Part shown: positions 8,759-64,000 of the stretch, one piece after another
Layout of the letters: each line of letters opens with the position of its first letter
Position numbering within the stretch: the first letter of the stretch is position 1
Source: Acidobacteriota bacterium
GTDB taxonomy: Bacteria > Acidobacteriota > Thermoanaerobaculia > Multivoradales > UBA5704
Reading direction: 5' to 3'
Length of the DNA: 64,000 nt
Assembly: GCA_046765915.1 (NCBI GenBank)
Contig: JBKPTH010000002.1
Span: 28,552-92,551 of the forward strand
The notes under the pieces: model-generated
Database searches by the model: none
What the model was told of the DNA's origin: nothing
Seen by the model: only the letters and a program-made list of their open reading frames with translations
Position numbers and translations under genes: made by a program

Positions 8759-8776
8759 CCGCGGAGCTAGGTGGAC

Positions 8777-32922: not shown

Positions 32923-34716
32923 ATGGATACCCAAGCCCTCGATGATGCCGAGGCGGTCTCCGCTGACTATGGCGTAGAGACAACTGCGGCGAACCAGCAC
33001 GCCGAAACGCTGCTATCACGGCGGCGGTTCCGGGATCCAGGCCTCGCAGGGTTGGCGCTGTTGCCCCTCGTCTTGCTCGCGCTCGATTCGAACTGGATCT
33101 ACAGCGGCCCCCACCGTGACGCCTGGATCTACTTCGGCTACTTCCAGAACGCCATTTTCTATCTGAGGCATTTCCAGGACCTCTACTACTCATCTCGCCT
33201 CGCGGTCATACTTCCCGGATTCGTGGTCTATCACTTGCTCCCGCCGGTGGTCGCTAACTTTGTGCTCCATCTCGCCCTCTACTGGGCCGCCGTCCTGTCC
33301 TTCTACTACGTCACGAAAGAGCTTTTCGGGGCCCGGGTGGCGTTGCTCGCCGGGCTCGCCTTGGGCTGCCATCCGTACTTCCTCCAGGCGATCGGGTGGA
33401 ATCACCCCGACGCGTTCGGAATCACCTACTTCCTGTTGGCGCTACTCTTCCTGACCCAGGCCAGCATTTCTCCTGCATGGCGATTCCTGCTTCTGGCCGC
33501 GGGGGCCATGGCAACGGCCATCCTCTCGTCCAACCTCTTCTATGGGATTTACTTGCCTCTGCTGGCAGGACACTTCCTAGTGCTCAACCGGCAGCGCGGG
33601 CGTATCCCTCTGCTCCCGGCTGTAGCTTGTGTGGCGTCAGGAGCAGTCGGCATGCTCCTCCTTTTCGGGTCGCTGACCTGGATGCTCGGCGGCGAGTTCT
33701 TTTATTTTCGTTCGTCCCTGAAATTCGTCTCGGGCTCCATAGGAACCCCGAATATCTTTCGCGATCCCACCTACTCATGGCTGCTGTTGGCGGTCTGGCT
33801 CGTGTTTCCGGCGGTGGTTCTCTTCGGCGCAGCCATCCTTCTGGGGCGGTCACGGACCCGCGCCTCCTTGCGCCAGGACCGCCTGCTGCTATGGTCGCAG
33901 ATCCAGTTCCTCATTCTGCTCGCGGCCATGCTCTTCTTTCAGGTCTTCGGCGATACCGCGGTGCTGGAGCACTTCTACTATGCGAGCCTGTTGATCCCTT
34001 CCGCCTTCCTGGCCTTTGCAGGCCAGCTCCGGCAGTTGATGGACGGCCTTCCCGACCGACTGTTCACCGGGCTGGCAGCGGTCGTGGCATTGCTCCAGAT
34101 CGTGCCCCTGTGCGTGCCGATAGTCCATTCCCTCACGAAGGACGGGATGCCTTTCAAAGCCCCAGTCCCTCTGGCCCTCTTCGCCGGGCTCGGCGTCGCG
34201 GTCGCCATGTGGCGGAAGACGACCGGGATGCGGGCGATCCTGAATCTCTTCCTGTGCCTTGCGCTCTCGCAATTCCTGGTGCGGCAGGGGGGCACGATCT
34301 TCGAGCAATTCGAGCACCACGACGGCGACGGACGCGGCCTCTTTCGGCAGCTCAGCCACGCCGTGACGGCGATCGAGAGATTCGATCCTTCTCAGAATGC
34401 GCGCCTCTGGTATGACCTCGATGAGCACGATGGGAGGATCTACGATGCCGTGGCTTCCGCATTTCTGCTCTGCCCACGGATGATCGGGCTCGACTTTCCA
34501 GACATTCAAGCCGGCAGGATGTGCGACGGCGTCCAGCTCGGACCAGGCGTCCCGATCGCCATTCTCTCGGCGGACCCGGCCGCGTTCAAGAAAGCCGCTA
34601 CGGCGCTCCACAGCATCGGTCTCTCCGCCCAGTTTCTCGGGTGGGAAGAGATCGACGGTCCTTCGCGCGGATTCGCCCTCACGTACCTGCGGACCGAAAA
34701 AGGGCCTTCACCGTGA
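32923..34716 (+). CDS. large polytopic membrane protein of unknown function (possible GT-C-like glycosyltransferase or polymerase)
   Basis: About 13 TM helices with a C-terminal soluble domain. No recognisable motif. Confidence 0.45.
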   Translation: MDTQALDDAEAVSADYGVETTAANQHAETLLSRRRFRDPGLAGLALLPLVLLALDSNWIYSGPHRDAWIYFGYFQNAIFYLRHFQDLYYSSRLAVILPGFVVYHLLPPVVANFVLHLALYWAAVLSFYYVTKELFGARVALLAGLALGCHPYFLQAIGWNHPDAFGITYFLLALLFLTQASISPAWRFLLLAAGAMATAILSSNLFYGIYLPLLAGHFLVLNRQRGRIPLLPAVACVASGAVGMLLLFGSLTWMLGGEFFYFRSSLKFVSGSIGTPNIFRDPTYSWLLLAVWLVFPAVVLFGAAILLGRSRTRASLRQDRLLLWSQIQFLILLAAMLFFQVFGDTAVLEHFYYASLLIPSAFLAFAGQLRQLMDGLPDRLFTGLAAVVALLQIVPLCVPIVHSLTKDGMPFKAPVPLALFAGLGVAVAMWRKTTGMRAILNLFLCLALSQFLVRQGGTIFEQFEHHDGDGRGLFRQLSHAVTAIERFDPSQNARLWYDLDEHDGRIYDAVASAFLLCPRMIGLDFPDIQAGRMCDGVQLGPGVPIAILSADPAAFKKAATALHSIGLSAQFLGWEEIDGPSRGFALTYLRTEKGPSP

Positions 34717-34736
34717 CCGTGCGGTCCACGCGCGCC

Positions 34737-35891
34737 ATGGCCCGTCCTATGGTCGGGCTGGCGGAGGCCCCGATCCCGTTCAACCGCCCGGAACTCGCCG
34801 GTCGCGAGCTCGACTACGTGCGCGATGCTGTGGACCGGGGGCAACTGTCGGGAGACGGCTGCTACACCCGTCAGTGCCAGGAGCTCCTCTCCGAAATCCT
34901 GGGAGGGGCCCGCGTCTTGCTGACGACCTCGTGCACTCACGCCTTGGAGATGGCGGCGCTGCTGCTCGACATTGGTCCCGGGGACGATTTCATCGCCCCG
35001 TCCTTCACGTTCGTCTCTACCGTCAACGCTTTCGTCCTGCGCGGCGCCCGCCCGGTCTTCGCCGACATCCGGCCGGACACGCTTAACCTCGACGAGGAGC
35101 AGCTTTCTTCCGTCATCACGCCGCGGACCCGGGCGATCCTCCCGGTCCACTACGCCGGGATGGGCTGCGAGATGGACCGGATCCTCGAGGCGGCACACGC
35201 AGCGGGGGCCGCTGTGGTGGAAGACAACGCCCATGGGCTCTTCGGCGCCTGGCGCGGCCGCCCGCTGGGGACCTTCGGCGCCCTGAGCACGCTCAGCTTC
35301 CATGAGACCAAGAACGTCTTCTGCGGGGAAGGGGGCGCCCTGGTGATCAACGACCGCGCCCTCACCGCTCGGGCCGAGATCCTGCGCGAGAAGGGCACCG
35401 ACCGGAGCCGCTTCTTCCGCGGCGAGGTCGACCGCTACACCTGGGTCGATATGGGATCGAGCTACGTCCCCTCCGATCTCCTGGCCGCGTTTCTTCTGGC
35501 ACAGCTCGAAGCGCGGGAAACAATCCAGGCGAGGCGCTGCCGGATCTGGCAACGCTACCGAGAGGAGCTCGCTGACTGGGCTCTGGCGCATGGCACCCGC
35601 TTGCCGGTGGTCCCTAATGAATGCGGGCCGCCTTGGCATCTCTTCTATCTCCTACTCCCGTCGCTGGAGGAGCGCCAGGCGCTGATCGCTCATCTCAAGA
35701 GCCGCGGCATCCAGGCGGTTTTCCACTACCTCCCTCTCCACCTCTCCGAAATGGGGCGTCGGTTCGGAGGACGGCCAGGCGACTGCCCCGTGACGGAGAG
35801 CGTCAGCGATCGGCTCCTCCGCCTGCCCTTCTTTTCAGGGTTGACCGATTCCGAACAGACGCGGGTCATCGAGGCGATCCGCGCCTTCTAA
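34737..35891 (+). CDS. DegT/DnrJ/EryC1/StrS-family PLP-dependent sugar aminotransferase (WecE/ArnB-like)
   Basis: Contains DFIAPSFTFVSTVNA, VEDNAHG, and the lysine motif LSFHETKNVFCGEGG. Confidence 0.8.
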   Translation: MARPMVGLAEAPIPFNRPELAGRELDYVRDAVDRGQLSGDGCYTRQCQELLSEILGGARVLLTTSCTHALEMAALLLDIGPGDDFIAPSFTFVSTVNAFVLRGARPVFADIRPDTLNLDEEQLSSVITPRTRAILPVHYAGMGCEMDRILEAAHAAGAAVVEDNAHGLFGAWRGRPLGTFGALSTLSFHETKNVFCGEGGALVINDRALTARAEILREKGTDRSRFFRGEVDRYTWVDMGSSYVPSDLLAAFLLAQLEARETIQARRCRIWQRYREELADWALAHGTRLPVVPNECGPPWHLFYLLLPSLEERQALIAHLKSRGIQAVFHYLPLHLSEMGRRFGGRPGDCPVTESVSDRLLRLPFFSGLTDSEQTRVIEAIRAF

Positions 35892-35892
35892 G

Positions 35893-36510
35893 TCAGCCCT
35901 TCCGCGCCCGCAGGATAAAGTGACTGTAGGGGATAGGTAGCAGGTCCGTGACCAGCCTCTCCTCGATATCGGCGAAACGCGCTGCCACCAGTCTCCGGTA
36001 ACCCTCGGGAGTCCGCACGCGGCGGCCCCGGTCCCGGGAGATGAGAAAACGGGCGATCCACGACTGGTTGGAATGGAAGACTGGGTCTGAGGTGACGAAG
36101 CAGCCCCCCTCCCTCAGATGACCGTGGGCGTCGCGGATCAGGCGGTCAGCATCGGCATCGCTCAGGTGGTGAAGGACCCCCTTGGCCACCACGAGATCAA
36201 AGTCCCCTTCGAGCGGTGGCTCCTCTCCGACCCGGGCGCAGAAAAACCTGCCGCGGCTGCCGTAGCGCCGCTCGGCCTCGGCAACGTACCGGGGGTTCAG
36301 GTCGTAGCCGGTGTACTCCACGTCCGGCAGATCGTCGAGCAGCGAACCCGAACCGCAGCCGATGTCGAGGATCCTGGCGCCGGGAAACGGGAGTAGAAAA
36401 TTCCTCGCGAAGCGTTGCCGGGCTGCCCGAGCCCCGAGCGCCCGCTGAAACCCCTCGTACACGCCCGCCCACTCCAGGAGCCGGTAAATTCCGCTCGAGA
36501 GCTGCTCCAT
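35893..36510 (-). CDS. class I SAM-dependent methyltransferase
   Basis: Contains ILDIGCGSGS and VVAKGVLHHL. It shares an ATGA overlap with the upstream gene. Confidence 0.6.
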   Translation of the reverse strand: MEQLSSGIYRLLEWAGVYEGFQRALGARAARQRFARNFLLPFPGARILDIGCGSGSLLDDLPDVEYTGYDLNPRYVAEAERRYGSRGRFFCARVGEEPPLEGDFDLVVAKGVLHHLSDADADRLIRDAHGHLREGGCFVTSDPVFHSNQSWIARFLISRDRGRRVRTPEGYRRLVAARFADIEERLVTDLLPIPYSHFILRARKG

Positions 36511-37448
36511 CAGCGGGGCTCCTCGGCCTCGGGGAACCCCCCCCGGCGGCGGATGAGGTAGGTAGGCCGGTTTTCGCTGCTCTCGATGATCCGGAGGAGG
36601 TACTCGCCGACTACGCCCAGGCTGACGAGGAGTAGGCCACCAATCAGCATCAGGGCCGCGAAGAGGGAGGCCCAGCCCTGGACGCTGACTCCGTGGACGA
36701 TCCTCCTGTAGACCACCAGGGCCGCCAGGAGGAAGCTGATCGCGGCGAAGGAAATCCCCGCCACGCCCACCAGGCGCAGCACCAGCGAGGAGTTGTTGAT
36801 GAGGAGGTTGCTGAACACGCGGAACAGCTTCCGCAAGGTGTAGCCGCTCCGCCCTCCTTGCCGGGCACCATGGCCCACCGGTACACCGACCACGTCCTTG
36901 CTCACATGGAACATCAACGCTGGGAGAAAGGGATGTGGAGTTCGAATCGAAAGGACCCCGTCCACGACCGTGCGGCCGAGCAAGCGGAACGAGCTGAGCT
37001 GGATGCCTCGGGGCTTGCCGATGAGGATCTGGTCGAAGAAGCCCTTTATGCGGCTGGCGGTCCGCCGGAAGAAGCTGTGCCGTTTGCGTTCGAACTGTCC
37101 GATCGCGATGTCGTGGCTCGCGTGCGCCAGCAGCTTCGGGATGTCTTGCGGGTCGTGCTGCAGGTCGTCGTCCAGAGTGACGACCACCTCGCCTTGAGCC
37201 TCGCGCAAGCCGCACAGCGTGGCCGCCTGCTGACCGAAGTTGCGCGTCAATTGCACCGCTCTCACCTCTTTCCGCTCTCGCGCCAGCCGCTCGAGGGTCA
37301 GCCAGGTCCCGGGATCGGGTGAGCGGTCGTCGACGAAGACGATCTCGTAGGCATCCTCCGTTCGGTCCCGGAACACGGCATCGATGCGGTCAGCCAATTC
37401 CTCCAGGACCGGGCTGTCGTAGACGGGGATTACGATGGAGACGCGCAT
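36510..37448 (-). CDS. GtrB/ArnC-like polyprenyl-phosphate sugar transferase (GT2 with C-terminal TM helices)
   Basis: Begins MRVSIVIPVYD. Contains IVFVDDRSPD, VTLDDDLQHDPQDI and two C-terminal TM helices. Confidence 0.75.
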   Translation of the reverse strand: MRVSIVIPVYDSPVLEELADRIDAVFRDRTEDAYEIVFVDDRSPDPGTWLTLERLARERKEVRAVQLTRNFGQQAATLCGLREAQGEVVVTLDDDLQHDPQDIPKLLAHASHDIAIGQFERKRHSFFRRTASRIKGFFDQILIGKPRGIQLSSFRLLGRTVVDGVLSIRTPHPFLPALMFHVSKDVVGVPVGHGARQGGRSGYTLRKLFRVFSNLLINNSSLVLRLVGVAGISFAAISFLLAALVVYRRIVHGVSVQGWASLFAALMLIGGLLLVSLGVVGEYLLRIIESSENRPTYLIRRRGGFPEAEEPR

Positions 37449-38152
37449 GCCCTCGCTGTGCTTAGAAGGTAGCTCCGAGCCCCATGCGGCCCTTCGTTGA
37501 GCAGCAGGTCCAGGATACTCACCTCGTGAATGAATGGTGGGGAGAAGAGCTGGTGGTACTCCGGGTAGCTGGAGTAATCCATCCAGCGTACGGCGATTCC
37601 CTTTTCGGCGAAACGGCTCTCGTCCAAGTAGACCCGGGCCGCCGGTCCCGAGAGGTACTCTCCGGCTCCTGCCTGCTCGCACAGACCGACGAGCCGCTCC
37701 GTACGATCGCCGCGCAATTCATACTCCGTCGAACGGGTGATGCGGGTCTCGACTCTGAGGAGGTCGCAAATCGCCCGCAAGAACAGCTCGTTGACACAGC
37801 TCAGGAGCCGCTCGCCAGCGGCACGCTCGTACAACCCGGCCAGCCGCGGTGCGATGTCGGCGAACCAGGGTGCACGGGCGTAATGAGTCTGGATCGAAGT
37901 CCAATGCCTGGCCGTCCACCGTGGATCGCCGATCTCGACCTCTCGAATCGGTTGTCCGAAGCGGCCCTTCAGGAGCACCGGAATGGTAATCCAGGCCGTT
38001 CCTTCGCGCGTCTTAATGCGGTTACGGTTCCGCCAGCCGTTCTTGCTGTACTGGACGTCGTCGTAGAGAATGAACTCATCTACGGATCCGATAATGTCGA
38101 AGTACCCCTTCCAGGGAACATAGGACGACTGGATAATGGCGACGCGTTTCAT
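37430..38152 (-). CDS. WbqC-like family protein
   Basis: The N-terminus MKRVAIIQSSYVPWKGYFDII is characteristic of WbqC-like proteins in O-antigen clusters. Confidence 0.55.
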   Translation of the reverse strand: MKRVAIIQSSYVPWKGYFDIIGSVDEFILYDDVQYSKNGWRNRNRIKTREGTAWITIPVLLKGRFGQPIREVEIGDPRWTARHWTSIQTHYARAPWFADIAPRLAGLYERAAGERLLSCVNELFLRAICDLLRVETRITRSTEYELRGDRTERLVGLCEQAGAGEYLSGPAARVYLDESRFAEKGIAVRWMDYSSYPEYHQLFSPPFIHEVSILDLLLNEGPHGARSYLLSTARACASPS

Positions 38153-38204
38153 CCGGCTGGTTCACGGATTCTAGCGCAATCTGCTACCGTCTCGGGCACG
38201 CCTC

Positions 38205-39335
38205 ATGGATGGCTTTACCCTTTTCCTCACTGGCATGCAGCGCTCAGGCACGACACTACTCGAAAGGCTGGTCGGCCTCCATCCCCATGCCTCGATCCTC
38301 GCGCAGCCGTTCCCCCTGATCTTCGTGGAGGCGAAGAGGGATTTTCTGCTTGGGTTCGGCCGGAGCCGCGTCCGCTATCCCCTGGGCCATCTCTTCCTCG
38401 AGGACGAATATCGGCAGGAGGACTTCGATCGATACCTGGCGAAGCTGCAGATCAACGGCGTGCGACTGCGGCAGATCTTCGACGAGATGCGGGACTTCTC
38501 CGGCCAGTATACTCGCTTTGACCGCTCCGCTGTGGAGCGGGCGATCCCGGTACTCCCTGCCGCCGCTGGCTTCGCCGAGCTCCTCGCAGCCCTCTACCGC
38601 AGCCTCTCCCCTGAGCCGGAAGCCCCGATCGTGGGCGGCAAAGAGACGATCTGCGAGGAGTTCCTGCCCCACTTCCTGGACCGCGGTTGGCGGTGCGTGC
38701 TCATCCTCCGCGATCCGCGTGACGTGGTGGCCTCGCTCAACCATGGCCGGGGTCCCGAGTACGGTGGCCCGCTAAAAACGACGCTCTTCAACGTCCGCAA
38801 CTGGCGCAAGAGCGTCGCCTACGCCCTCCACCTTGACGGCCACCCGGGGTTTCTCTGGCTGCGCTATGAAGATCTTGTCGCCGATCCCCGAACGACCCTA
38901 CACCGGATCGCCCACAATTTAGGGCTTGCCGATTTCGTGCCGGGTGAGATCCGCGATGTCGCAGGCCGCTTCTGGACAGGCAACTCCTCCCACGGTGAGC
39001 GCCTGGGCGTGAGCGACGCATCGGTCGGTGCCTACCAGCAGATCCTTCCGGAGGCGGTTGTCCAGTTCGTCGAGGCCGCCTGTCTGCCGGAGTTGCGGTT
39101 CCTCGGTTATCCCACGAGCCTGGACGCGGAAGAGGCGCCCGGCGTCCTCCACGGTTTCGAGGAGCCCTACGAGATCACGCGCGAGGGCATCGAGAACGAC
39201 CTCGCCGGCGATGCCAACGCTGCTCTGGAATCACGACGCCTCGAGCTACTCGGCGAGGCTCCGGCCGCCGCGACCCAACCCTGGTTCCTGTTTGAGCGCG
39301 CCCATGCCAGGCTGCGGGAGGCCCTTTTGGGATGA
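38205..39335 (+). CDS. sulfotransferase
   Basis: The 5'-PSB motif is TGMQRSGTTLL and the 3'-PB region is LILRDPRDVVAS. Confidence 0.65.
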   Translation: MDGFTLFLTGMQRSGTTLLERLVGLHPHASILAQPFPLIFVEAKRDFLLGFGRSRVRYPLGHLFLEDEYRQEDFDRYLAKLQINGVRLRQIFDEMRDFSGQYTRFDRSAVERAIPVLPAAAGFAELLAALYRSLSPEPEAPIVGGKETICEEFLPHFLDRGWRCVLILRDPRDVVASLNHGRGPEYGGPLKTTLFNVRNWRKSVAYALHLDGHPGFLWLRYEDLVADPRTTLHRIAHNLGLADFVPGEIRDVAGRFWTGNSSHGERLGVSDASVGAYQQILPEAVVQFVEAACLPELRFLGYPTSLDAEEAPGVLHGFEEPYEITREGIENDLAGDANAALESRRLELLGEAPAAATQPWFLFERAHARLREALLG

Positions 39336-40312
39336 TTGTCTTCGCGGCCCGGGCCTGCTCGATCCTGCACGACCTCTTGCGCTCATGCGGGGAAGAGCGC
39401 CCCTTCCTGATGCCGGCCAACATCTGCCCTATCGTTCCGGTGACCTTTCTGGAGACGCGGCGCTCCTTCGTACTGGTCGACATCGCCGAATCTACGTTGG
39501 AGATAGATCCCGAAGCCTGCCTCGACCGCCTTCGACAGGAGCCGGGGAGGTTCGGCGGGATCCTGTTCGTCCGCCCTTACGGTAGCGAGCGGGATGTGGA
39601 TACCTTCTTTCGCCGGCTCAAGGAACTGCAGCCGGACCTGCTCCTTATTGATGACAAGTGCCTCTGCCGGCCGGACTGCGAAGGCGCGAGGATCTCACCT
39701 TGGGCGGATGTGACCTTGTTCAGCACGGGCCGGGTAAAGTACGTCGACCTGGGATACGGCGGCTTCGCGCACATGCGGGAGAGCGTCCCGTATCGCCGTA
39801 GCGATGGGCCGACATATCGCGAGACCGCGCTGGAAGAGGTGACCCGCCGTTACGAGAGGGCTGTGGCCGAGAGGTCACCCTTCGAAGGGACTTGCGAAGG
39901 ATGGCTCGATCTCCGGGTGCCGAAGGTCTCCTGGAGAGATCACAGCCAGCGCACGGCCGCGGCGTTGCGCCGGGCCGATCAGCACAAGCGTCGCCTCAAT
40001 GCCCTCTACGCGGATGAGCTGCCACGGGAGATTCAGTTAGCGCCCGAGTTCCAGGCTTGGCGGTTCAACATCCGGGTGCCTGCACCAGAGAGGCTCATCA
40101 AGCGCCTCTTCGCGAAAGGGCTCTACGCCAGCCGCCATTACCCCGGCCTGGGAGGAATCTTCTCTAAAGGTCAGTTTCCCCAGGCGGAGAGGTTCCACCA
40201 GGAGATTGTCAATCTGTTCAATGACAGGTACTTCAACGAGGAGCAGGGGGAGCAGGCTGTCAACCTCGTGCGCGAGCACCTCGCAGAATTGGAAACGGCA
40301 GGTCTGCTATGA
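39332..40312 (+). CDS. divergent DegT-like PLP-fold protein (function uncertain)
   Basis: The order of motifs resembles DegT: ICPIVPVTF, a DDK segment, FSTGRVKYVDLGYGG, and a C-terminal GLYASRHYP. It is translationally coupled on both sides. Confidence 0.35.
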   Translation: MIVFAARACSILHDLLRSCGEERPFLMPANICPIVPVTFLETRRSFVLVDIAESTLEIDPEACLDRLRQEPGRFGGILFVRPYGSERDVDTFFRRLKELQPDLLLIDDKCLCRPDCEGARISPWADVTLFSTGRVKYVDLGYGGFAHMRESVPYRRSDGPTYRETALEEVTRRYERAVAERSPFEGTCEGWLDLRVPKVSWRDHSQRTAAALRRADQHKRRLNALYADELPREIQLAPEFQAWRFNIRVPAPERLIKRLFAKGLYASRHYPGLGGIFSKGQFPQAERFHQEIVNLFNDRYFNEEQGEQAVNLVREHLAELETAGLL

Positions 40313-41229
40313 AGCTGGCGTCACTACCGAGCAGGCGGGTGGAGGCAGCCGACTTGATGGATTGCATCGAATCGTGTCCAGTTTGTCTGTACCGGGGCGA
40401 GCGGCGCCCTGTGCTTCCCCTCCAAGATGCGCCGAGGGTCGACTTTCTCGAATGTCCGGTCTGCCAGGCGTGCTCCGCGTCTCATATGCCCAGCGAAGAG
40501 CTCCTGTCTCGGTTCTACAGCTCGTTTTACGACGGCAAGGAGGAGCACGTGACGTTCGATGGCCCCGAACGCTTTGCCGCACACCTGGTCAAGTACCTGC
40601 GGGTCGCGGCGTCGGTGGAACGCTTTCGCATCCTCGATTTCGGAGGCGGTGACGGCCGTCTGGCGGCAGCGGTTGGCTCCCGACTGCTGAGCAATGGGCC
40701 TTGTCACCATGCCGAGGTCACAGTCGTCGATCCCCACGTAGGTGAGGTGGTCGCTGCGACAGGCATTGCAATACGCCGAGCCGGCGGGCTCGACGAAGAG
40801 CTGGGCGAGTTCGACCTGGTGCTTGCCTCGGGAGTGCTGGAGCATATGCCTCTTTTTCACGACGTGATGAAGCGTCTCGCCGATGCCATAGCTCCCGGAG
40901 GCCACTTCTACGCCAGGACGCCCTGGAACGTTCCCCTGGCCAAGATCCTACCAAGGGCGGACTTGTCCTTTCCGGCGCATGTGCATGATTTCGGTGCACC
41001 TTTCTGGAACCAGGTCGTCCAAACGCTGCAGCTCCCACTCCGCCGCAGACGCTCGCGGCCCTCGATTCGTCAGGTGGGGTTCAGGGAAGCGCCATTACGG
41101 GCTCTGCTGGTGGCCGGGCTCAAGCTGCCCGGCCACATCGAGAGCAGCATCTCGCCAGCAAATCGGCGGAACCGCTTCTACCGGTTTGTTGGTGGCTGGG
41201 AGGTACTCCTGCAACGGCCAGCGAGCTGA
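40309..41229 (+). CDS. class I SAM-dependent methyltransferase with N-terminal CxxC zinc ribbon
   Basis: CPVC...CPVC forms the zinc ribbon. The methyltransferase motifs ILDFGGGDG and LVLASGVLEHMP follow. Confidence 0.55.
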   Translation: MKLASLPSRRVEAADLMDCIESCPVCLYRGERRPVLPLQDAPRVDFLECPVCQACSASHMPSEELLSRFYSSFYDGKEEHVTFDGPERFAAHLVKYLRVAASVERFRILDFGGGDGRLAAAVGSRLLSNGPCHHAEVTVVDPHVGEVVAATGIAIRRAGGLDEELGEFDLVLASGVLEHMPLFHDVMKRLADAIAPGGHFYARTPWNVPLAKILPRADLSFPAHVHDFGAPFWNQVVQTLQLPLRRRRSRPSIRQVGFREAPLRALLVAGLKLPGHIESSISPANRRNRFYRFVGGWEVLLQRPAS

Positions 41230-41291
41230 ATGCTCCAGCATCTGGGTGAACGTGGAGACCCGGCGCGCACCGGGTCTCCACTCAGATCCGG

Positions 41292-43058
41292 TTACTGCTT
41301 CTCCGCCTTCTCCAGGAGGAGCTGCTTGATCTCGCGTAGCTCTTTCTGCAACTCGGCGATCTGCGCGTCCTTCTCCTGCACTACCTGGTAGAGCCCCTGC
41401 ACCGCCAACATGGTAATGCCTTGGACATCCATCGGGACGATGTACTTTCCATCCGTTCCCAGGCCGAAGGCGCTCTGGAAGTCCTCGACGGTCGGGCCGA
41501 CGTGGCGCATCTTGCGCTCGTCGTCCTTGTAGCTCCACTCCTGGACCGGCAGCTCGGCGAACTTTTGCAGCACGGCGCTCGAATCCACCGGCTGGAAGTT
41601 CTCCTTGAACGTGCGCGAGGAGTTGTTGGTGAACACGCCGTTCACGGTCAGGCCGTTGTTGGCCGTCACCAACCCGCTGGTTCCGTTGATCGTCATGCGG
41701 CTGGCGTTGTTGGTGCCAAAGGTGATGTCGTCGGCTTCTGAACCCGTCCCGATGAGGAGTCCATTGCCGCCAGCGGCGAGGATTTCTTGGCGGTTGCCGA
41801 GCGTTATGCCGTACCGTGTGGCCGTCCTGCCGCTCCCGTGCGAGATTAACTGCGCCAGGCCGCCGGCGTTATTCTTGGCGCGAAAGCCAGCGAGTGCGGA
41901 GGTGCCCGCGCTGGTGTTCTCGACCTGGATAAAGGTGTTCGCATCGACGCTATCGAAGACGTGCAGCTTCTCGTCCGGGGCAGCTATGTTGATGCCCACG
42001 TCGCCATCCGAGCTGATGTCGAGGCTGCTCGTCGGCGCGCCGGGGCGGATGCGGAAGGACAGCTTGGAGCCGCCGGTGACGTCGCGGACGAAGAAGTTGG
42101 CCTCGTTGGCGCCGATGTCCCAGGTCTGGGCGGTGAAGCCGCCGGAGTTGTTCTGCTCGAGGCGGATGGCCGGCGTGTTGGACGTGTTGATGTGGAGGTC
42201 GAGCACCGGGGTGGACGTGCGCAGGCCGATGCGGCCGGTGCTGTCGGCGAAGATCGAGTTGGTCGCGGCGCCGGCGGTGATGGTGAAGGGCACCTTGCTG
42301 CCGGTGATGTCCTCGATGGAGAACTTGCTCGAGCCGCCGCTCGCCGAGTCGTTGGCGGTGAGCTGCCAGTCGTTGGCCGGGAAACCCGCGGACGAGCTGG
42401 TGTCGTCGAACTTGATGCGGGTGTTGTTCTCCTTCAACCGGATGGTGTCGAAGCCGAAGCTCTCGTTGTTGACGCAGTCGAGGCCGACGCACGCGCTGCC
42501 CTGGACGATGAGGTCGTCCGGGATGACCTGGTCCGCCGCGGTGGAGGGCGTCAGCGCCTTCGAGGCGGCCGAGCCCTTGCCGCGCCTCGGCTCATTGGCT
42601 TCCTGCACCAGCGTGCCGTGGTCGATGCTGAAAGCGCCGGACTGCACCATCGGCGTGCGCGGCAGCTTGCCGGCCTCCTGCAGCTTGGCGATGGCGGCGT
42701 CGTCGCCGTTCTGCCGCGCCGCGGCGAGGGCCCGCCGGGTCGCCCGGTCGAGCACCGGCGCGGCGACGAGCTCGTAGCGGTAGGCGCCGTCGGGAAGCGG
42801 CTTGCCGTCGTCGCCGACGGCCTCGAAGACGATGGCGGCGCCGGCGGCGAACTCACGGCGTACGATCAGACCCTCGGGGCCGGACACGGTCAAGGTCATC
42901 TTCTGGAACTCGACCGACGGCTGGAACTGGATCCCGAGCGGGCTGACGCTCGCGGCGGCCAGAGCGGCCGGAGCGGCGGTCGCCGGCGCCGCCAGCAGGG
43001 CCGCGGCGAGGGCCAGGACCGCGATCGCCCCCCAACTGGATTGCGTGCTCCTCATCAT
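41292..43058 (-). CDS. secreted beta-helix/tail-fibre-like protein with C-terminal peptidase-S74 intramolecular chaperone domain
   Basis: A strong GGAGG ribosome-binding site and a signal peptide. The Gly/Ser/Thr/Asn-rich beta repeats are followed by a C-terminal SSRTFKENFQPV...YKDDERKMRHVGPTVEDF...MLAVQGLYQVVQEK-coiled coil matching the endosialidase chaperone domain. Confidence 0.65.
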   Translation of the reverse strand: MMRSTQSSWGAIAVLALAAALLAAPATAAPAALAAASVSPLGIQFQPSVEFQKMTLTVSGPEGLIVRREFAAGAAIVFEAVGDDGKPLPDGAYRYELVAAPVLDRATRRALAAARQNGDDAAIAKLQEAGKLPRTPMVQSGAFSIDHGTLVQEANEPRRGKGSAASKALTPSTAADQVIPDDLIVQGSACVGLDCVNNESFGFDTIRLKENNTRIKFDDTSSSAGFPANDWQLTANDSASGGSSKFSIEDITGSKVPFTITAGAATNSIFADSTGRIGLRTSTPVLDLHINTSNTPAIRLEQNNSGGFTAQTWDIGANEANFFVRDVTGGSKLSFRIRPGAPTSSLDISSDGDVGINIAAPDEKLHVFDSVDANTFIQVENTSAGTSALAGFRAKNNAGGLAQLISHGSGRTATRYGITLGNRQEILAAGGNGLLIGTGSEADDITFGTNNASRMTINGTSGLVTANNGLTVNGVFTNNSSRTFKENFQPVDSSAVLQKFAELPVQEWSYKDDERKMRHVGPTVEDFQSAFGLGTDGKYIVPMDVQGITMLAVQGLYQVVQEKDAQIAELQKELREIKQLLLEKAEKQ

Positions 43059-43396
43059 TTCCTTCCTCCTTCCATGCATACGGCTGGTGTCAAGGGACCG
43101 GACCCACGCGGTCCGGACCCGGAGAGTCCGTCTCAGGCTGGAGCCCACAAGGTGAAGAACCAGGACTCCAAGATAGTGCGAAAAAAGGAAGAAAGAGAGA
43201 CACCCCGTTCGCCCTCCGGCCGGCCTGGTACCACAGGCGCGTCGAACCGAGATCCGTTACAGGGCAGCGATGAACGCGGCTGGAGGTCGTGCGAGCCCTG
43301 GTGTCAATATAAACGAAATCCACGCGCTTGTCGATTAGCCCTCACTGTTGAATCGAGTGTGCTGTGCAAACGATAAAAGTGATCAATTCAAAGCCC

Positions 43397-45379
43397 TCAA
43401 GGAACCGGCCGCGCGAGGAGCGAGAAGATTTCTCCGTACACCGGATGAAGGTCGGCGGCGATCCCCAGCTCCAGGCGCTCGATGGCGGCCGTCACCCTAC
43501 TCTCGCCATTCTCCTCCGGCAGGGGCCAATGCAGGGTCAGCCGGTTCAGCCCGGGGCGCAGGCCGCCGCGCTCCACCCGCAGCCACGCCCGGGACCAGCG
43601 CTCCTCGGCTGCCGCCCCGCCCACTGCGGCGCCGTTGACGGTCACGCCGATCCGTCCCCGGCGGCTCCCTCCGGCGAGGGGGGAAGGGAGGCGGGCCGTC
43701 AGCTCCAGCTCGACGTCGCACTGGGCGTCGCAGATCAGACAGAAAGAGGACTCCGGCCAGGGGCAGCGGAGAAAAGCCCGCTCGGGAAGGTCGGCGAAGC
43801 GCATGGCGTCGGGATAGAACCTCTCCAGCGGTTCCCAGAGATACGGCGGCTGGGTGAGATCGGTGCCTTCGCCGCGGATCGCGAGGTGGCGGAGCAGGAG
43901 AGCGGCGGTCTGCTGCCGCGCCGGCCGGCCCCGCCGCTCCAGGACCTCGCAGAGGGCCTCGATCAGGTCGGCGTCTAGATGGTCCCAGCGCCACCCGTGC
44001 TGCAGCAGGAGGCGATAGGGCGAGCCGAGGTTGCGCTGCTGGGCCGCCGTCAGCACCGCCGGACAGGGGGCGCAGCGGGCGGCGATCAGATCGAGCATGG
44101 CCCCCTCGATCCCTGGCGAGACATCGAGGGCCGCTTCGCACCAATGCTCCAGCAGCGGGCGCTTGGAGCCCACCGGCAGCAGACGATGGGCGGTGTGGAC
44201 GGCGGCGCCCAGGCGGGCGGTGGCCTCCGCCTCAGGCGAGATCTCCGTGGGAAGAAGGAGCCGATGCCAATCGATCTTCTCCTCGAGCATCCCCGAGAGA
44301 TCCAGCACCTCGGAGGCCACGGCCGCCATGGCGACCTGGATACCTTCGAGGGTGAGATGACAGTAGTCGAGGAAGAGGCGGCGGTCCGGAAGGGGCGAGC
44401 CGGTATGCGCCGCGAAAACCTGCCGCAGGTCGACGCGGGAGAAGCCATGCCGGCGGCCGGCGCCCTCGAGGATGTCCCGCGCGATCGTGGTGGCCTGGGG
44501 AGCGCTCAGGAAGGCGAGGGTGGGGTAGGCGGCGGCGTCGATCTCGGCGAGAGCGGCGCGCCTCGCCTCGTCGTGATTTCCCAGCCCCATCCACGCCCGG
44601 GCGGCCAGACGCCAGGAGGAGGAGCAGGCGCCGCCGTCCAGGTCCCGCATCGCCTGAGCGGCGGCGAGCGCTCCTTTGAAGTCCTGTCGCGCGAGCCGTT
44701 CCCGGGCTTCCTCGTAGAGGCCATGCCAGCGGGCGATGCCATCGCCCGGCAGCCAGACCGGCGGCTGGCGGGTCTCCCAGTCGGCGAGGTTGACCTCGGG
44801 GAGGACGAGGACGACCGGGATGCGGACGGTCCGCGCGATCATGGCGATGAAATCCAGGACCGCCTCCGCCTTCTGCCGCAGCTCCTGCCCGGCGAGCCGC
44901 ACCGGCCCCGCCATCCCTTCCTTCCGCAGCGCGTGGGCGTAGCGCCGGCGGGCCGCGGCCGAGGGAGCGTAGGGAGAGATCTCCGGCGTCTCCAGCAGGT
45001 TCCAGTTGTTGCCGGTGAACAGCACCAGCACGTCCGGATCGATCTGCAGGGAGGTCCGCACCGTCGCGGCGAGGGAGGCGAGGGTCTCGTTGGTGCGCGC
45101 GAGGTCGATCACCTCGAAATGGGCCTCGCCGCCCGCGGCCTGGAGCTGCGCCTCGAGGACCCGCGCCGGCGTCAGGTGGGGCGCATAGAGGTAGCCGGCC
45201 GCCACGGACTCGCCGAAGAAGGCCACCCGCAGCGGCAGCTCTGATTTTTTCGGGCGCAGCACCCTCGCCGCCGCGTAGTGGTCCCCCAGCGGCAGGGGAT
45301 CGGGACGGACGAAGGCGAGCTCGCCGTCGATCTCCCGCGGCTGCCAGATGCTGATCGGCTCGGGCGGCCGCGTCTTCAT
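43397..45379 (-). CDS. SGNH/GDSL-fold hydrolase-like protein with large C-terminal domain
   Basis: Block I is FFGESVAAGY, block III is FTGNNW and block V is DYCHL. It shares an ATGA overlap with the carbamoyltransferase. The 1395 aa track ORF merges two genes. Confidence 0.5.
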   Translation of the reverse strand: MKTRPPEPISIWQPREIDGELAFVRPDPLPLGDHYAAARVLRPKKSELPLRVAFFGESVAAGYLYAPHLTPARVLEAQLQAAGGEAHFEVIDLARTNETLASLAATVRTSLQIDPDVLVLFTGNNWNLLETPEISPYAPSAAARRRYAHALRKEGMAGPVRLAGQELRQKAEAVLDFIAMIARTVRIPVVLVLPEVNLADWETRQPPVWLPGDGIARWHGLYEEARERLARQDFKGALAAAQAMRDLDGGACSSSWRLAARAWMGLGNHDEARRAALAEIDAAAYPTLAFLSAPQATTIARDILEGAGRRHGFSRVDLRQVFAAHTGSPLPDRRLFLDYCHLTLEGIQVAMAAVASEVLDLSGMLEEKIDWHRLLLPTEISPEAEATARLGAAVHTAHRLLPVGSKRPLLEHWCEAALDVSPGIEGAMLDLIAARCAPCPAVLTAAQQRNLGSPYRLLLQHGWRWDHLDADLIEALCEVLERRGRPARQQTAALLLRHLAIRGEGTDLTQPPYLWEPLERFYPDAMRFADLPERAFLRCPWPESSFCLICDAQCDVELELTARLPSPLAGGSRRGRIGVTVNGAAVGGAAAEERWSRAWLRVERGGLRPGLNRLTLHWPLPEENGESRVTAAIERLELGIAADLHPVYGEIFSLLARPVP

Positions 45380-47148
45380 ACGAAGGTGTAGAGATCCTCG
45401 CTGATCGCGGATCTCTCGGTTGCGAAGCCGCTGCGCGCCGGTTCCCGCCAGGCCGGCAGCAGCTCGGCCCAGTTGCCGGGCAGACTCTCGCGATCGATCA
45501 GGAAGTCCTCCAGGACCAGGGCGTCGATGCCCGACACCCCCATGCAGAAGAGAGCATCCACCGGCGAGCGGACGATCGGCTCGCCGCGCACGTTGAACGA
45601 GGTGTTCACCAGCAGGGGACAGCCGGTCCGCCGGTGGAAGGCCTCGAGCAGGGCGGCGAAGCGGGGAGCGGTCTCCGGCTCGACGGTCTGCGGGCGCGCC
45701 GAGCCGTCCACGTGAGTGACCGCGGGCAGGCCGAGCGGCGAGATCACCCGGCAGGTCGCGAGCATGAAGGGCGAGGCCTGGCCGAGATCGAAGTGCTCCC
45801 CGGCGTGGGCGGCCAGGACGCTCGGCGCGAAGGGACGGAACGCCTCCCGCTTCTTGACCAGCCGGTTGAGGCGGTCGCGCATGCCCGGTTCGCGCGCGTC
45901 GGCGAGCAGGCTGCGGGCGCCCAGGGCCCGCGGGCCGAGCTCCATGGCGCCGTGGAACCAGCCGACGACCTGGCCGGCCGCCAGTCGCCCGGCTACGGTT
46001 TCCAGCAGGGCGTCCTCGCGTCCTCGGAAATCCTCGCCCGGCAGGCCCGTGGCCGCGAGCAGATCCGCGATCTCCTCTGCCGTCCAGCTCGGCCCGAGAA
46101 AGACGTGGCGGAGAGGTGCGGTCCCGGGGTGCCGCCCCGTCATCTGGACATGGGCGAGCGCGGCGGCGCCCAGGCAGCCTCCTGAGTCGCCGGCCGCCGG
46201 CTGCACGAACAGGCGCTCGAACGGACCTTCGCGCCGGATGCGGCCGTTGGCCACCACGTTCAAGGCGACGCCTCCCGCCATGCAGAGATCGGGCAGGCCG
46301 GTCCGCGCGTGGAGGTAACGGACCTTCTCGAGCAGGATCTCTTCCAGCACCACCTGGAGGCTGCGCGCCACGTCCTGATGAAACGGGGTGATCTCCTCCT
46401 CCCGGCGTCGCGGCGGCTGGCCGAAGAGACGGGGCAGGGCGTCCGAGTACATGCGCGAGCCGCGGATGAAATCGAAATAGTCCAGATCGAGCCGGAACTG
46501 CCCGTCCGCCGCGGCGGAGACGAGCTGGCGCATCTCGCCGACGTAGCGCGGCTCGCCATAGGGAGCGAGCCCCATCACCTTGTACTCGCCGTCGTTGACC
46601 GCGAAGCCGAGATAGGCGGTGAGGGTGGAGTAGAGGAGGCCGAGCGAATGCGGGAACTCCACCTCCTCGAACGGCTCGATCGCCGTCCCGGCCGCCCGGC
46701 CGTAGGTGGTGGTGGCCCACTCGCCGACGCCGTCCACGGTGAGGACGGCGGCGGCGGGAAAACCGGAGAAGAAGAAGGCGCTGGCGGCGTGGGAGAGGTG
46801 ATGATCGAAGGTGAGGAGCGGCCCCTCGTAGCCCAGGTCTTCGCGGATGGCGCGCTCCGGGCGGCCGGGATCGCGCCAGGCGGAATCGCCCGCCGCGGCC
46901 GCCGGCACGCCCGCCCGGAGCTGGCGGGCCAGCTTCTTCGCCGGCGACTCGTAAAAGGCCACGCAGTCGACGTCGGCGATGCCGAGGCCGCCCCGGCGCA
47001 GACACCAGCGGAAGGCGGCGACGGGCAGCCGCGGATCGTGCTTGACCCGCGAGAACCTCTCCTCCTCCGCCGCGGCCACCAGGCGGCCGTCGCGCATCAG
47101 GCAGCAGGCGGATTCGTGGAAGAAGGCGGAGATGCCGATGACGTTCAC
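45376..47148 (-). CDS. NodU/CmcH-family carbamoyltransferase
   Basis: The N-terminus NVIGISAFFHESACCLMRDGRLVAAAEEERFSRVKHD matches this family. The start is GTG 47148, because the upstream ATG extension has AT-rich atypical codons. Confidence 0.8.
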   Translation of the reverse strand: MNVIGISAFFHESACCLMRDGRLVAAAEEERFSRVKHDPRLPVAAFRWCLRRGGLGIADVDCVAFYESPAKKLARQLRAGVPAAAAGDSAWRDPGRPERAIREDLGYEGPLLTFDHHLSHAASAFFFSGFPAAAVLTVDGVGEWATTTYGRAAGTAIEPFEEVEFPHSLGLLYSTLTAYLGFAVNDGEYKVMGLAPYGEPRYVGEMRQLVSAAADGQFRLDLDYFDFIRGSRMYSDALPRLFGQPPRRREEEITPFHQDVARSLQVVLEEILLEKVRYLHARTGLPDLCMAGGVALNVVANGRIRREGPFERLFVQPAAGDSGGCLGAAALAHVQMTGRHPGTAPLRHVFLGPSWTAEEIADLLAATGLPGEDFRGREDALLETVAGRLAAGQVVGWFHGAMELGPRALGARSLLADAREPGMRDRLNRLVKKREAFRPFAPSVLAAHAGEHFDLGQASPFMLATCRVISPLGLPAVTHVDGSARPQTVEPETAPRFAALLEAFHRRTGCPLLVNTSFNVRGEPIVRSPVDALFCMGVSGIDALVLEDFLIDRESLPGNWAELLPAWREPARSGFATERSAISEDLYTFV

Positions 47149-47336
47149 AGGGATCCATTCTAGAAGCGGTTTGCGACCTGTTGCAGGCTCTGCTATCTTT
47201 ATGGGTCCTGAGACAGGGAGGCGTCCGTCTTTGTCGCGCCGCGGCCAGAGACTCAACCGCCCTCGAACACGGTGACGCCGGCGGCAGTGGGTCGGCTTTT
47301 GGAAACACGGCCTCGCGAGGCCAGGAGCGACAGAGA

Positions 47337-58750: not shown

Positions 58751-58969
58751 AGGAGCTCCCGGGCCGTCGCGCCCGCACCGAGCCGACAGCTCCCCCCGCG
58801 CGGGGACGGGAAGGCATCCTTCGGGGAGAGTCCTCGCAGGCGCCGTCCTTCCCCGGCCGGCGAGCCGGCGAGGGCTCAAAGAAGAAAGTTGTCAGATGAG
58901 TCGGCGTTTTTCCGTCTTATATAGGTGGCGGACGGAATCGCCCGTCCGGTCCATCGAGAGGGCTGCGCT

Positions 58970-59962
58970 ATGCCTGAGCCGACCCATGCCGTTTCTTCCA
59001 CGAGGGAGCCCAAGCTGCTCGACCGGGTTCGCGCCTCGGCGCGAGTCCGTCACCTGAGCCTCCGCACCGAGAGGACCTACGTCCAGTGGATCCGCCGCTA
59101 CATCCTTTTTCACGGCAAGCGCCATCCCGCGGAGATGGGGGAGGCGGAGATCAACACCTTCCTGACGCACCTGGCCGTCGAGGGAAAGGTCAGCGCCTCG
59201 ACGCAGACTCAGGCCCTGTGCGCGATCCTGTTCCTCTACCGCGCTGTCCTGGGCCGGGAGGTGGGCGAGTTCGAGGGGCTCGTACGGGCCAGACGCAGGC
59301 GCAAGCTGCCGGTGGTGCTGACGGCGGAGGAGGTCAAGCGGATCCTGGTCAACGTCGAAGGAGTCGAGCGGCTCTTCCTTTCTCTCCTCTACGGCACCGG
59401 ACTGCGGCTGACGGAGGCCCTCCGGTTGAGGATCAAGGACGTGGACCTGGTCTACGACCAGATCACCGTACGCGACGGCAAGGGAGGGAAGGATCGCGTG
59501 ACCATGCTGCCGGTCTCCTTGAAGGCCGAGCTGATGGAGCACCTCAAGGGTGTCAAGCGGCTGTACGAGGAGGATCTGCGCGCCGGGTACGGCCGCGTCC
59601 ATCTTCCCCATGCCTTGGCGAGGAAATACCCGCGGGCGGCGGGTGAATGGGGCTGGCAATACGTCTTCCCGGCGCCGCAGATCTCGCGCGACCCGCGTTC
59701 AGGAGAGCACCGGCGCCACCACCTGCACGAGAGGCCGCTCCAACGAGCCTTCCATGATGCGGCACGGAAGGCCGCCGTCACGAAGGCGGCGACCTGCCAT
59801 ACCCTGCGGCACTCCTTCGCCACCCACTTGCTGATGAACGGCTACGACATCCGGACGGTGCAGGAGCTCCTGGGGCACAGCAGCGTGAAGACGACGATGA
59901 TCTACACCCACGTCCTCAACCGCGGCGGCCGGGGCGTGCGGAGCCCGATCGACGTGCTATAG
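58970..59962 (+). CDS. intI: integron integrase
   Basis: Colinear with IntI1, including the IntI-specific patch [21 protein letters not shown]...[14 protein letters not shown]. Box I is [16 protein letters not shown], box II is [12 protein letters not shown]...[22 protein letters not shown], and the C-terminus is GVRSPIDVL. Confidence 0.85.
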
Positions 59963-60354
59963 CCGGGTTTGCGCCGGCGTCTTATACGACCGGTTTCAGC
60001 CGCATAAGCAGCTCGGCTGCCGAGCCAAGGTATCCCCGCAACCGGTTGAAAGGATGGAAGATAGGCGAGGCTTGCCGAGTTGGCGAGAGGAGTGCTTCTT
60101 GCCTCTGAGCCAGCCGGATATCGTTCCCTTGGACGGCATATGGCCTTCGGATAAGGCTCACGCATGCGACGGTCTGCGGCCCCAACCTCAGCCGTTTCAA
60201 CAGGATCGCCCACAGCAAGCCTCCGTGCAGGAAAGCTGCCGATGTCCTCGGCGGCCCGAGAGGCTTATGCGACTGAATCTCCTCAGTTTGACCTGGCGCC
60301 GAAGGCGCTGTAGAATACTATGACGCATAGAATGAATGACATAGACCGCTTTCT

Positions 60355-60419
60355 CGAATTCGAGAACCCCCGTGACGCGAAGCACGCCACGAGGGGCGCA
60401 TAAGCTCAGTGCGAGGTTA
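60355..60419 (+). mobile_element. putative attI / first recombination site ending in canonical GTTAGGC core
   Basis: GTTAGGC is followed by GGCAGGGAGAAG. The same TAGGCGGCAGGAGA junction recurs after attC0 at 60692. Confidence 0.3.
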
Positions 60420-60440
60420 GGCGGCAGGGAGAAGTTGACG

Positions 60441-60647: not shown

Positions 60648-60692
60648 CGGTCGGCAAGCATGTGTCGCAGCGCCGCACGCCACTGGTTGGCC
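60616..60692 (+). mobile_element. attC-like site 0 (77 bp)
   Basis: It aligns with attC1 and attC2: AGCGAAACCC...GAGCGG...GTTGGCC. Confidence 0.45.
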
Positions 60693-60716
60693 TGAGCTAG
60701 GCGGCAGGAGATATCG

Positions 60717-62503: not shown

Positions 62504-62537
62504 GACTAGATAGATGAGCTAAGGAGCATAATTTTTT

Positions 62538-63971: not shown

Positions 63972-64000
63972 GCTGAGTTGGAGACCGAAGTAAACCGTGA

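Follow-up and report, generated by a model that had tools for sequence, protein, structure and literature searches.

Domain architecture, relatives and genomic setting of a chromosomal S74-capped fibre gene from an acidobacterium: a probable relative of the Bdellovibrio MAT adhesins

What does a chromosomal gene with a phage-type intramolecular chaperone do at the edge of a bacterial surface-glycan cluster? The gene in question occupies positions 41292-43058 (reverse strand) of a stretch of 64,000 nucleotides (nt) from contig JBKPTH010000002.1 of a soil bacterium of the Acidobacteriota (Thermoanaerobaculia). This whole stretch was analysed and is called the window in the following. An earlier note on it had described the gene product as a secreted beta-helix protein with a Peptidase_S74 domain and offered two possible functions, i.e., a host-encoded glycan depolymerase or trimmer, or a surface fibre that trimerises by means of its phage-like chaperone. 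We determined computationally the domain architecture and homology of the protein, the conservation of its cleavage dyad, the mosaicism of its family, and the genomic context and upstream motif of the gene. Most probably, the product serves as a surface adhesin and is a relative of the prey-gripping fibres of Bdellovibrio. More specifically, we consider it fairly probable that it is a host-owned, Sec-exported, homotrimeric fibre or adhesin of the phage-tail-fibre / Bdellovibrio MAT (mosaic adhesive trimer) type, which is assembled with the assistance of its S74 domain.

The open reading frame (ORF) encodes 588 amino acids (aa) plus stop. Its ATG at 43058 is preceded by a ribosome-binding site (RBS) GGAGG at a distance of 7 nt, and the GC content at third codon positions (GC3) is 0.91. 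A longer ORF with a GTG start at 43148 is possible; this start has no RBS. The architecture of the protein is signal peptide, Ig/FN3-like N-domain, linker, shaft, hypervariable tip and S74 chaperone (all coordinates on the reverse strand). By inspection, aa 1-28 (42975-43058) form a Sec-type signal peptide ending in A-T-A|A (full sequence MMRSTQSSWGAIAVLALAAALLAAPATA|A) with a hydrophobic core at aa 11-24. AlphaFold2 (AF2) places a helix at aa 10-22, and the hydrophobic N-terminus is kept across 70 homologues, in line with the export that had been proposed for the protein. The N-domain (aa 30-151; 42606-42971) is modelled as an Ig/FN3-like beta-sandwich followed by two helices and a beta-hairpin, with a predicted local distance difference test score (pLDDT) of about 93. 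Its Foldseek matches in PDB are FN3 and DUF3244 Ig-like sandwiches (target-normalised TM-score, TMt, 0.5-0.69), accompanied by a weak FlgD_ig match in Pfam (E 0.02). We propose this domain as the cell-proximal anchor.

A variable linker rich in Ala, Ser, Pro and Lys (aa 152-174; 42537-42605; pLDDT <50) leads to the ultra-conserved shaft of 188 aa (aa 175-362; 41973-42536), which consists of a neck and two MAT-type fibre modules. These modules end in the capping-loop motifs RIGLRTSTPVLDL and DVGINIAAPDEKL, respectively, while the neck carries an invariant cysteine pair (C190/C195) that fits an oxidising compartment. The third fibre module is the hypervariable distal one, i.e., the tip (aa 363-479; 41622-41972), and is exchanged independently of the rest of the protein. 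With regard to composition (A 12.9%, G 9.5%, S 8.2%, T 7.5%, N 5.3%), the protein is only moderately rich in Gly, Ser, Thr and Asn. That is, the Gly/Ser/Thr/Asn-rich body of the earlier description holds in a moderate form.

The C-terminal 109 aa (aa 480-588; 41295-41621) comprise the Peptidase_S74 chaperone and a coiled-coil helix (Pfam; AF2 pLDDT about 90). PF13884 matches aa 480-531 with 41.1 bits (cutoff 22, E 2.1e-10), which bears out the chaperone of about 110 aa that had been assigned to this end. The Ser-Lys cleavage dyad suggested as a check is found within the catalytic motif S480-S-R-T-F-K485 (41604-41621; translation checked) in the expected Ser-x4-Lys spacing. Both residues are invariant in an alignment of 70/70 full-length homologues and, in a PDB profile search, align with the dyad positions of MyRF ICA (7DC3) and of the phage S16 fibre (6F45). 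At the +1 position, the protein has Ser instead of the Asp of SDxxxK; the family switches between SS and SD. Cleavage is predicted between N479 and S480. When compared by structure (Foldseek), the S74 domain likewise finds MyRF ICA (7DC3, probability 1.0, TMt 0.60). The shared fold spans aa ~455-588 (profile E 3.5e-4), i.e., what MyRF, a eukaryotic membrane-bound transcription factor, has in common with the fibre is limited to a beta-helix turn and the chaperone/protease domain that follows it.

For the body of the protein, the solved structures that match by sequence or profile are Bdellovibrio fibres only. The strongest similarity is to Bd2133 (8OND; E 1.1e-8 for the single sequence, E 1.3e-11 for the family profile), and the family profile also matches 8OJN (Bd3182, E 1.2e-3), 8OL4, 8ON4 and 8OML. 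Beside these, Foldseek shows a loose match of the body to the T4 gp34 fibre, and 99 phage tail-fibre / S74 proteins were matched at E<=1e-3 among viral structure models. A Bd2133 fragment stitched from the 8OND alignments and used as query returned short, diverse fibre proteins and did not retrieve a full-length Bdellovibrio MAT.

MAT fibres were defined in Bdellovibrio bacteriovorus (Caulton et al., Nat Microbiol 2024; PMC10769870). According to that paper, they start with a signal peptide, to which a conserved, beta-rich N-terminal domain of ~130 aa is joined, continue as a trimeric intertwined beta-helix with capping loops and end either in an S74 chaperone/protease with SDxxxK or in alternative tips. 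They are surface-displayed and undergo S74-dependent processing, which is blocked by S782A, and glycan binding was shown for one of them, Bd2439 (PMC10769870). Like the MAT S74 subgroup (e.g., Bd3182, 8OJN) and Bd2133 (8OND), the fibre gene of the window is chromosomal and not phage-borne. The two systems also share the signal peptide and, behind it, a beta-rich N-domain of ~120-130 aa (alike in size and beta content), the C-terminal S74 chaperone with its Sx4K dyad and fibre modules that are homologous in sequence and have a VGIGTxxPxxKL-type capping loop. Furthermore, both families have members with alternative non-S74 tips, i.e., tip swapping.

On the other hand, the protein differs from MATs in its length (588 aa vs ~1000), its mere three modules and a 188-aa shaft that is nearly invariant over hundreds of species. 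Its host is acidobacterial, i.e., from a group that is absent from the MAT-bearing taxa listed in PMC10769870. The location at the edge of a glycan cluster and the upstream motif GTAAC-N-GCC(C/T) (see below) are features of the window's family, which the consulted parts of that paper do not mention for MATs. Formal MAT membership is incomplete; it is supported by the sequence and profile matches of the fibre modules and by the mosaic C-terminus. The fibre would work in the manner of the MAT S74 subgroup, to which it is probably related.

Given the homology to S74 and MAT proteins, the invariant dyad and the conservation pattern, the following course of events can be proposed, in which trimerisation, autocleavage, surface display, adhesion and the class of ligand are inferred. 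The signal peptide would carry the chain over the inner membrane via Sec export. The S74 chaperone (aa 480-588) would then align three chains and nucleate the folding of the shaft, an intertwined beta-helix, beginning at the C-terminal end. Subsequently, the Ser480/Lys485 dyad is expected to cut N479|S480 and to free the 109-aa chaperone, which would uncover the hypervariable third module (aa 363-479) as distal ligand-binding tip. The resulting mature fibre would have ~450 aa per chain, with the Ig-like N-domain at its base as cell-proximal attachment end. By analogy, the ligand bound by the tip would most likely be a glycan.

Several observations weigh against this reading. Neither an export route beyond Sec nor an outer-membrane anchor was identified in our analysis, such that the fibre could also be periplasmic. 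The shaft of the monomer AF2 model is of low confidence (aa 155-470 with pLDDT <55, both terminal domains at ~90 or above); this is what would be expected if the body folds only as an obligately intertwined trimer and also counts in favour of the reading. The canonical SDxxxK reads SSRTFK here and S74 activity is a prediction. The likeness to MATs was established for the fibre modules and the C-terminus, and the N-domain is a candidate counterpart of the MAT N-domain. Thermoanaerobaculia, i.e., the group of the host, are to our knowledge not predators and we know of no ligand. Finally, the conservation of the shaft, with many invariant acidic residues and a synonymous divergence (dS) about half that of the other fibre regions, exceeds the needs of a passive spacer and hints at an additional function or partner.

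Such conservation also bears on the question whether the protein is an enzyme. If so, the trimer would carry a catalytic cleft and act as host-encoded depolymerase or trimmer on the cell's own exopolysaccharide or on the O-antigen of the surrounding cluster. Classically, S74 chaperones accompany endosialidases and tailspikes, and the 85%-conserved shaft with its many invariant Asp/Glu would suit an active site. The gene is embedded in a glycan cluster of 45 kb, and 41/72 related loci have glycan genes within 6 kb (counting loci with enough flank). With regard to catalysis, neither Pfam and NCBIfam nor PDB (sequence/profile) and Foldseek searches detected a glycoside hydrolase, lyase, sialidase or right-handed beta-helix domain, i.e., both a beta-propeller of glycoside hydrolase family 58 (GH58) and a right-handed parallel beta-helix with active site went undetected. 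The ~450-aa mature part is fully covered by the Ig-like N-domain and three MAT-homologous fibre modules, and the distal part is so variable that it suits a binding tip and is unlike a conserved active site; both leave the depolymerase unsupported. Furthermore, the conserved region aligns to non-enzymatic Bdellovibrio MAT fibre modules, and giant proteins of 1700-4900 aa contain 3-4 copies of its 188-aa unit, as is typical of a structural repeat.

A better candidate for cutting or modifying glycans is a separate secreted protein of the same cluster, encoded at 21867-22793 (forward strand). It has 308 aa, a signal peptide and beta-helix-like repeats; the protein itself has no direct match in Pfam, while its homologues in related loci (41-53% identical) match PF13229 (Beta_helix). 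We thus regard an enzymatic role of the fibre as improbable. This leaves the surface fibre that trimerises via a phage-like chaperone as the best-supported of the two functions on offer, with Bdellovibrio MAT fibres as the only solved structures that its body matches by sequence or profile. Accordingly, the beta-helix postulated for the body is to be kept if it denotes a beta-helix fibre of three intertwined chains and to be dropped if it denotes a single-chain right-handed tailspike helix.

Is such a fibre owned by the cell or is it part of a phage-like particle? Phage endosialidases/tailspikes and tail fibres (K1F endoNF 3GW6, T5 pb1 4UW8, S16 gp37 6F45) share with it the C-terminal S74 domain with Ser-Lys dyad, a trimeric beta-structure before it and the pattern of a conserved N-proximal and a variable distal part. 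The S74 domain of the window is 39-46% identical to those of N4-like phages. In contrast to the phage proteins, the fibre has a Sec signal and lacks a sialidase/tailspike catalytic domain, a virion attachment domain and phage neighbours, and its body shows just 26-34% identity to phage fibres over parts of the sequence. This distant homology to phage fibres and S74 domains is one of the observations that speak for a remnant or accessory tail fibre of a prophage, a tailocin or an extracellular contractile injection system (eCIS) encoded elsewhere in the genome. Another is an orthologous locus (L003/L006, positions 1-9100, from one Thermoanaerobaculaceae genome) where the fibre gene lies divergently beside an eCIS sheath gene, a gp19-like tube gene, Pvc16_N and eCIS_core.

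The third is found within the window, where a tyrosine recombinase gene (Phage_integrase with SAM-like N-domain; 58925-59962) lies 16 kb from the fibre gene, separated by RRM, RlmL, ABC-transporter and histidine-kinase genes. It is followed by a low-GC stretch at 60-64 kb (GC 52-58%); recombinase gene and low-GC island lie 16-21 kb from the fibre gene. The stretch contains small ORFs, one of them TonB_C-like; none of its ORFs has a PHROG match, and a 477-aa ORF at 62538-63971 has no Pfam match either. Positions 58925-64000 may be the border of an integrated element whose remainder lies outside the window.

The remaining evidence opposes a phage-like origin. Pfam and PHROGs scans revealed no phage structural gene among the ~55 ORFs of the window and, as the single phage-related match of any type, the tyrosine recombinase, such that the absence of nearby phage genes and the chromosomal nature that had been claimed for the locus stand, and no phage families occur among the annotated neighbours of related loci. 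Among 50,697 phage genomes there are piecewise matches only and no full-length relative, and IMG/VR contains no relative. A Sec signal is unexpected for a part of a virion or tailocin that is assembled in the cytoplasm. Adjacency to eCIS genes is restricted to 1 of ~76 loci, while the gene occupies conserved chromosomal sites (after frr-SpoU or carbamoyltransferase-GDSL genes) across many species. Based on the IMG/VR, phage-database, eCIS-adjacency and PHROGs results, we rejected a prophage, tailocin or eCIS origin, which we regard as very improbable.

The host-owned fibre belongs to a large family. More than 5800 homologues were found, and species-representative genomes contain 526 chromosomal loci, nearly all from Thermoanaerobaculia, Holophagales and other Acidobacteriota. 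When the shaft is used as the only query, at least 1469 clusters (50% identity) are found at E<=1e-30. The only chromosomal S74-capped fibres whose characterisation we are aware of are those of Bdellovibrio, where they serve prey recognition. Here, a very large family related to them dominates in Thermoanaerobaculia/Holophagales, which are abundant, mostly uncultured soil Acidobacteria. Outside this phylum, the cultured gammaproteobacterium Tahibacter soli strain BL (L078, NZ_JAOVZO020000020.1) encodes a full-length homologue with 47% overall identity, whose shaft has a nonsynonymous divergence (dN) of 0.18 to that of the window. A cross-phylum transfer is likely, and T. soli offers an experimentally tractable carrier of the fibre. 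Its fibre gene is neighboured by genes for an ECF (extracytoplasmic function) sigma factor, an amidohydrolase and a TonB-dependent receptor.

Conservation differs strongly between the regions of the protein. Mean pairwise identities are 49% for the N-domain (aa 30-151), 25% for the linker (aa 152-174), 85% for the shaft (aa 175-362; minimum 71%), 26% with indels for the tip (aa 363-479) and 47% for S74 (aa 480-540). As far as such identities tell, a constant shaft with hypervariable tip is a profile typical of receptor-binding proteins. The combination of constant shaft and S74 chaperone may also serve as a natural scaffold for exchanging binding tips. The shaft seems to be an autonomous, repeatable unit, given that it occurs in 3-4 copies in the giant proteins (P0184-P0187, with 1701, 3409, 4164 and 4928 aa) and also in ~400-aa proteins without the N-domain.

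Two relatives illustrate how the family diversifies. For P0009 (locus L088), identity to the protein of the window is 98% in the N-domain and 90% in the shaft, and only 22% in the tip and 16% in the C-terminus (a non-S74 ending), and the GDSL gene upstream of it is 90.5% identical to that of the window. For P0001 (locus L089), the picture is reversed, i.e., 43% for the N-domain, 91% for the shaft, 65% for the tip and 89% for the C-terminus, and here it is the downstream genes that resemble those of the window (62-82% identity). From these opposite patterns it follows that the gene of the window is a recombinant with a crossover in the shaft. Two types of non-S74 endings (P0025/P0074 type and P0009 type) are found on the same N-domain and shaft; some of them belong to loci whose flanking genes agree (L008, L020, L024, L026, L027). 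The alternation of non-S74 and S74 endings at orthologous loci corresponds to the tip-swapping pattern of MATs. Cassette exchange with crossovers in the ultra-conserved shaft is the best explanation for the evolution of the gene. At two loci, paralogous S74 fibre genes are arranged in tandem directly upstream of the fibre gene (L038, 7980-9683; L039, 7896-9722).

Beside the mosaicism of the protein, we studied which genes accompany it. According to Pfam, the window from 3.5 to 47 kb is one large surface-glycan cluster with GT1, GT2 and GT4 glycosyltransferases (GT), two PMT_2 and one YfhO GT-C proteins, UDP-glucose dehydrogenase and epimerases as well as a DegT aminotransferase, WbqC, two sulfotransferases, several methyltransferases, a carbamoyltransferase and a GDSL-like protein. 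The module adjacent to the fibre gene (32923-41229) encodes a PMT_2 GT-C, the DegT aminotransferase, a methyltransferase, a GT2, WbqC, a sulfotransferase, a 326-aa protein and a further methyltransferase (Pfam), and also flanks the fibre gene in 12-17 other genomes. The gene of the 326-aa protein (39332-40312, forward strand) has neither a Pfam nor a PHROG match, adjoins the fibre gene in 12-17 genomes and is translationally coupled to the sulfotransferase gene upstream and the methyltransferase gene downstream.

On its upstream side, the fibre gene follows the co-oriented genes of the GDSL/SGNH-like protein (43397-45379, reverse strand; Pfam) and the carbamoyltransferase (45376-47256, reverse strand; Pfam), in agreement with the order given in the earlier note. 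These two genes overlap by 4 nt (start/stop), while a spacer of 338 bp, which has promoter-like elements of its own, lies between the GDSL/SGNH-like gene and the fibre gene. The best explanation is that the fibre gene is transcribed as a unit by itself, on the margin of a variable surface-glycan cluster. In 14-15 orthologous loci, the fibre gene is preceded by the carbamoyltransferase-GDSL pair, whose genes are translationally coupled, and in 20 loci by an rpsB-tsf-pyrH-frr-SpoU methylase block. Downstream, three different glycan modules recur, i.e., unk326-sulfotransferase-WbqC-GT2-DegT-PMT_2-LPG_synthase_TM, GtrA-GT2-FdtA-Hexapep-DegT, and GT2 with polytopic membrane proteins and Wzm/Wzt.

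To claim that the fibre gene is always found in glycan clusters is too strong given the 41/72 count from above. The remaining 31/72 loci, which have no panel glycan gene within 6 kb, contain type I restriction-modification systems, tandem S74 paralogues or unrelated genes, and many of them follow frr-SpoU. The association is thus frequent and not universal. In five loci (L025, L034, L041, L053, L075; ~12-16 kb), type I HsdM/HsdS genes are located immediately downstream of the fibre gene behind the frr-SpoU methylase. The frr-SpoU-type site seems to be a hotspot for variable or inserted DNA.

The gene classes are also reflected in the fibre regions. N-domain identity follows the upstream class (0.59 within vs 0.41 between classes) and tip identity the downstream class (0.53 within vs 0.21 between), while shaft identity tracks neither. 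Such a pattern fits a joint transfer of tip and adjoining glycan genes by crossovers within the shaft. One might go further and consider the fibre to be a working part of the adjacent glycan pathway, i.e., either an acceptor of periplasmic GT-C (PMT_2-type) glycosylation or a protein that specifically recognises, or is attached to, the modified glycan on the surface of its own cell. The class-level identities are in favour of this, as is the recurrence of the fibre beside three different undecaprenyl-phosphate-sugar/GT-C-type modules. Moreover, the tip stays with its cluster even where the intervening C-terminal domain is replaced (L020, L008), and an upstream motif is common to the fibre gene and those of the secreted beta-helix protein and a polytopic membrane protein (see below).

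On the other hand, linkage and shared ancestry can yield such a class-level association, all the more as our permutation test of the tip ignores phylogeny. Within the unk326-sulfotransferase class, tip identity and neighbour identity are uncorrelated (rho ~0.1), such that a functional match of tip and glycan is not demonstrated, and the 31/72 loci speak against a role in the pathway as well. Published bacterial N-/O-glycosylation motifs, counted by eye, are few and close to chance according to a rough hand estimate; we gave them no weight. Overall, we consider a role within the glycan pathway doubtful. For the fibre as adhesin, its constant shaft and variable tip beside glycan loci provide a route into cell-surface recognition in Acidobacteriota.

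Within the spacer upstream of the fibre gene (43059-43396, reverse strand), we identified two promoter-like signals. The first is the sigma-70-like promoter TCGACA-17-TATATT (43306-43334, reverse strand), which has 10/12 matches (0.2 expected by chance) and is kept in orthologous loci of the carbamoyltransferase/GDSL type. The second is the bipartite motif GTAACG-N16-CGCCTG (43234-43260, reverse strand), a candidate ECF-sigma-type promoter or operator. In its general form GTAAC-N15-18-GCC(C/T), it occurs at most 300 nt upstream of the fibre gene in 44/71 loci, compared to a background of 0.0046 per 300 nt, and it accompanies the fibre gene whatever the upstream neighbour. In loci of the frr-SpoU type, it is located 47-66 nt before the ATG, i.e., in promoter geometry. 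An AAC-containing first element and a spacer of 16-17 nt resemble ECF-sigma promoters, and ECF sigma genes lie near the fibre gene in L004 and L078. The motif looks like the ECF-sigma-type promoter of a small regulon.

Which other genes might belong to this regulon? In the window, GTAACG-N-CGCCTA (21727-21754, forward strand) precedes the gene of the secreted beta-helix-like protein introduced above. In total, the motif is found before 10/19 genes for ~300-aa secreted right-handed beta-helix proteins, and such a gene is at most 6 kb away from the fibre gene in 12 loci. We consider this protein a candidate for a co-regulated partner of the fibre. Furthermore, seven loci have the motif before the gene of a polytopic membrane protein (all of one family), which is located shortly downstream of the fibre gene.

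When combined, these observations allow for a broader scenario, in which the fibre and its neighbouring glycan genes act as a single surface-type cassette that can be exchanged. Here, the tip (or the N-domain) would fit the variable polysaccharide on the surface of its own cell and serve anchoring or kin/self recognition. Recombination in the shaft would transfer tip and glycan genes jointly, and fibre, secreted beta-helix enzyme and polytopic membrane protein would be co-expressed from the shared ECF-sigma-type promoter GTAAC-N16-CGCCTA. We deem this scenario quite unlikely as a whole. If true, it would constitute a glycan-coupled adhesin system in non-predatory soil Acidobacteria and would hint at what MAT-type fibres attach to. 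In any case, the glycan-gene linkage and the shared promoter motif yield testable candidates for the anchoring and export of MAT-type fibres. What is noteworthy in the acidobacterial fibre is its invariant shaft, its modular recombination, its linkage to glycan loci and the motif that it has in common with the secreted beta-helix gene.

Finally, we inspected the leader and the immediate surroundings of the gene. About 240 nt of the 5' leader are conserved, including a pyrimidine-rich block TGTCCCTCTTTCTTCCTTTTTCCGCACTT. A scan of the window with Rfam at gathering threshold reported nothing, i.e., the conserved leader has no known RNA family. It contains the hairpin GGACCGCGTGGGTCC (43100-43114, reverse strand) ~35 nt before the RBS, for which RNAalifold on 13 loci reports 9 pairs, 5 of them with compensatory changes. 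Within the fibre gene, an antisense ORF of 390 aa is present at 41605-42777 (forward strand; GC3 0.93); it is most likely an artefact of high GC content and was treated as such. Downstream, a perfect 10-bp hairpin, read directly from the nucleotides, is placed between the convergent fibre and methyltransferase genes (41254-41279); it is terminator-like and has no T-run.

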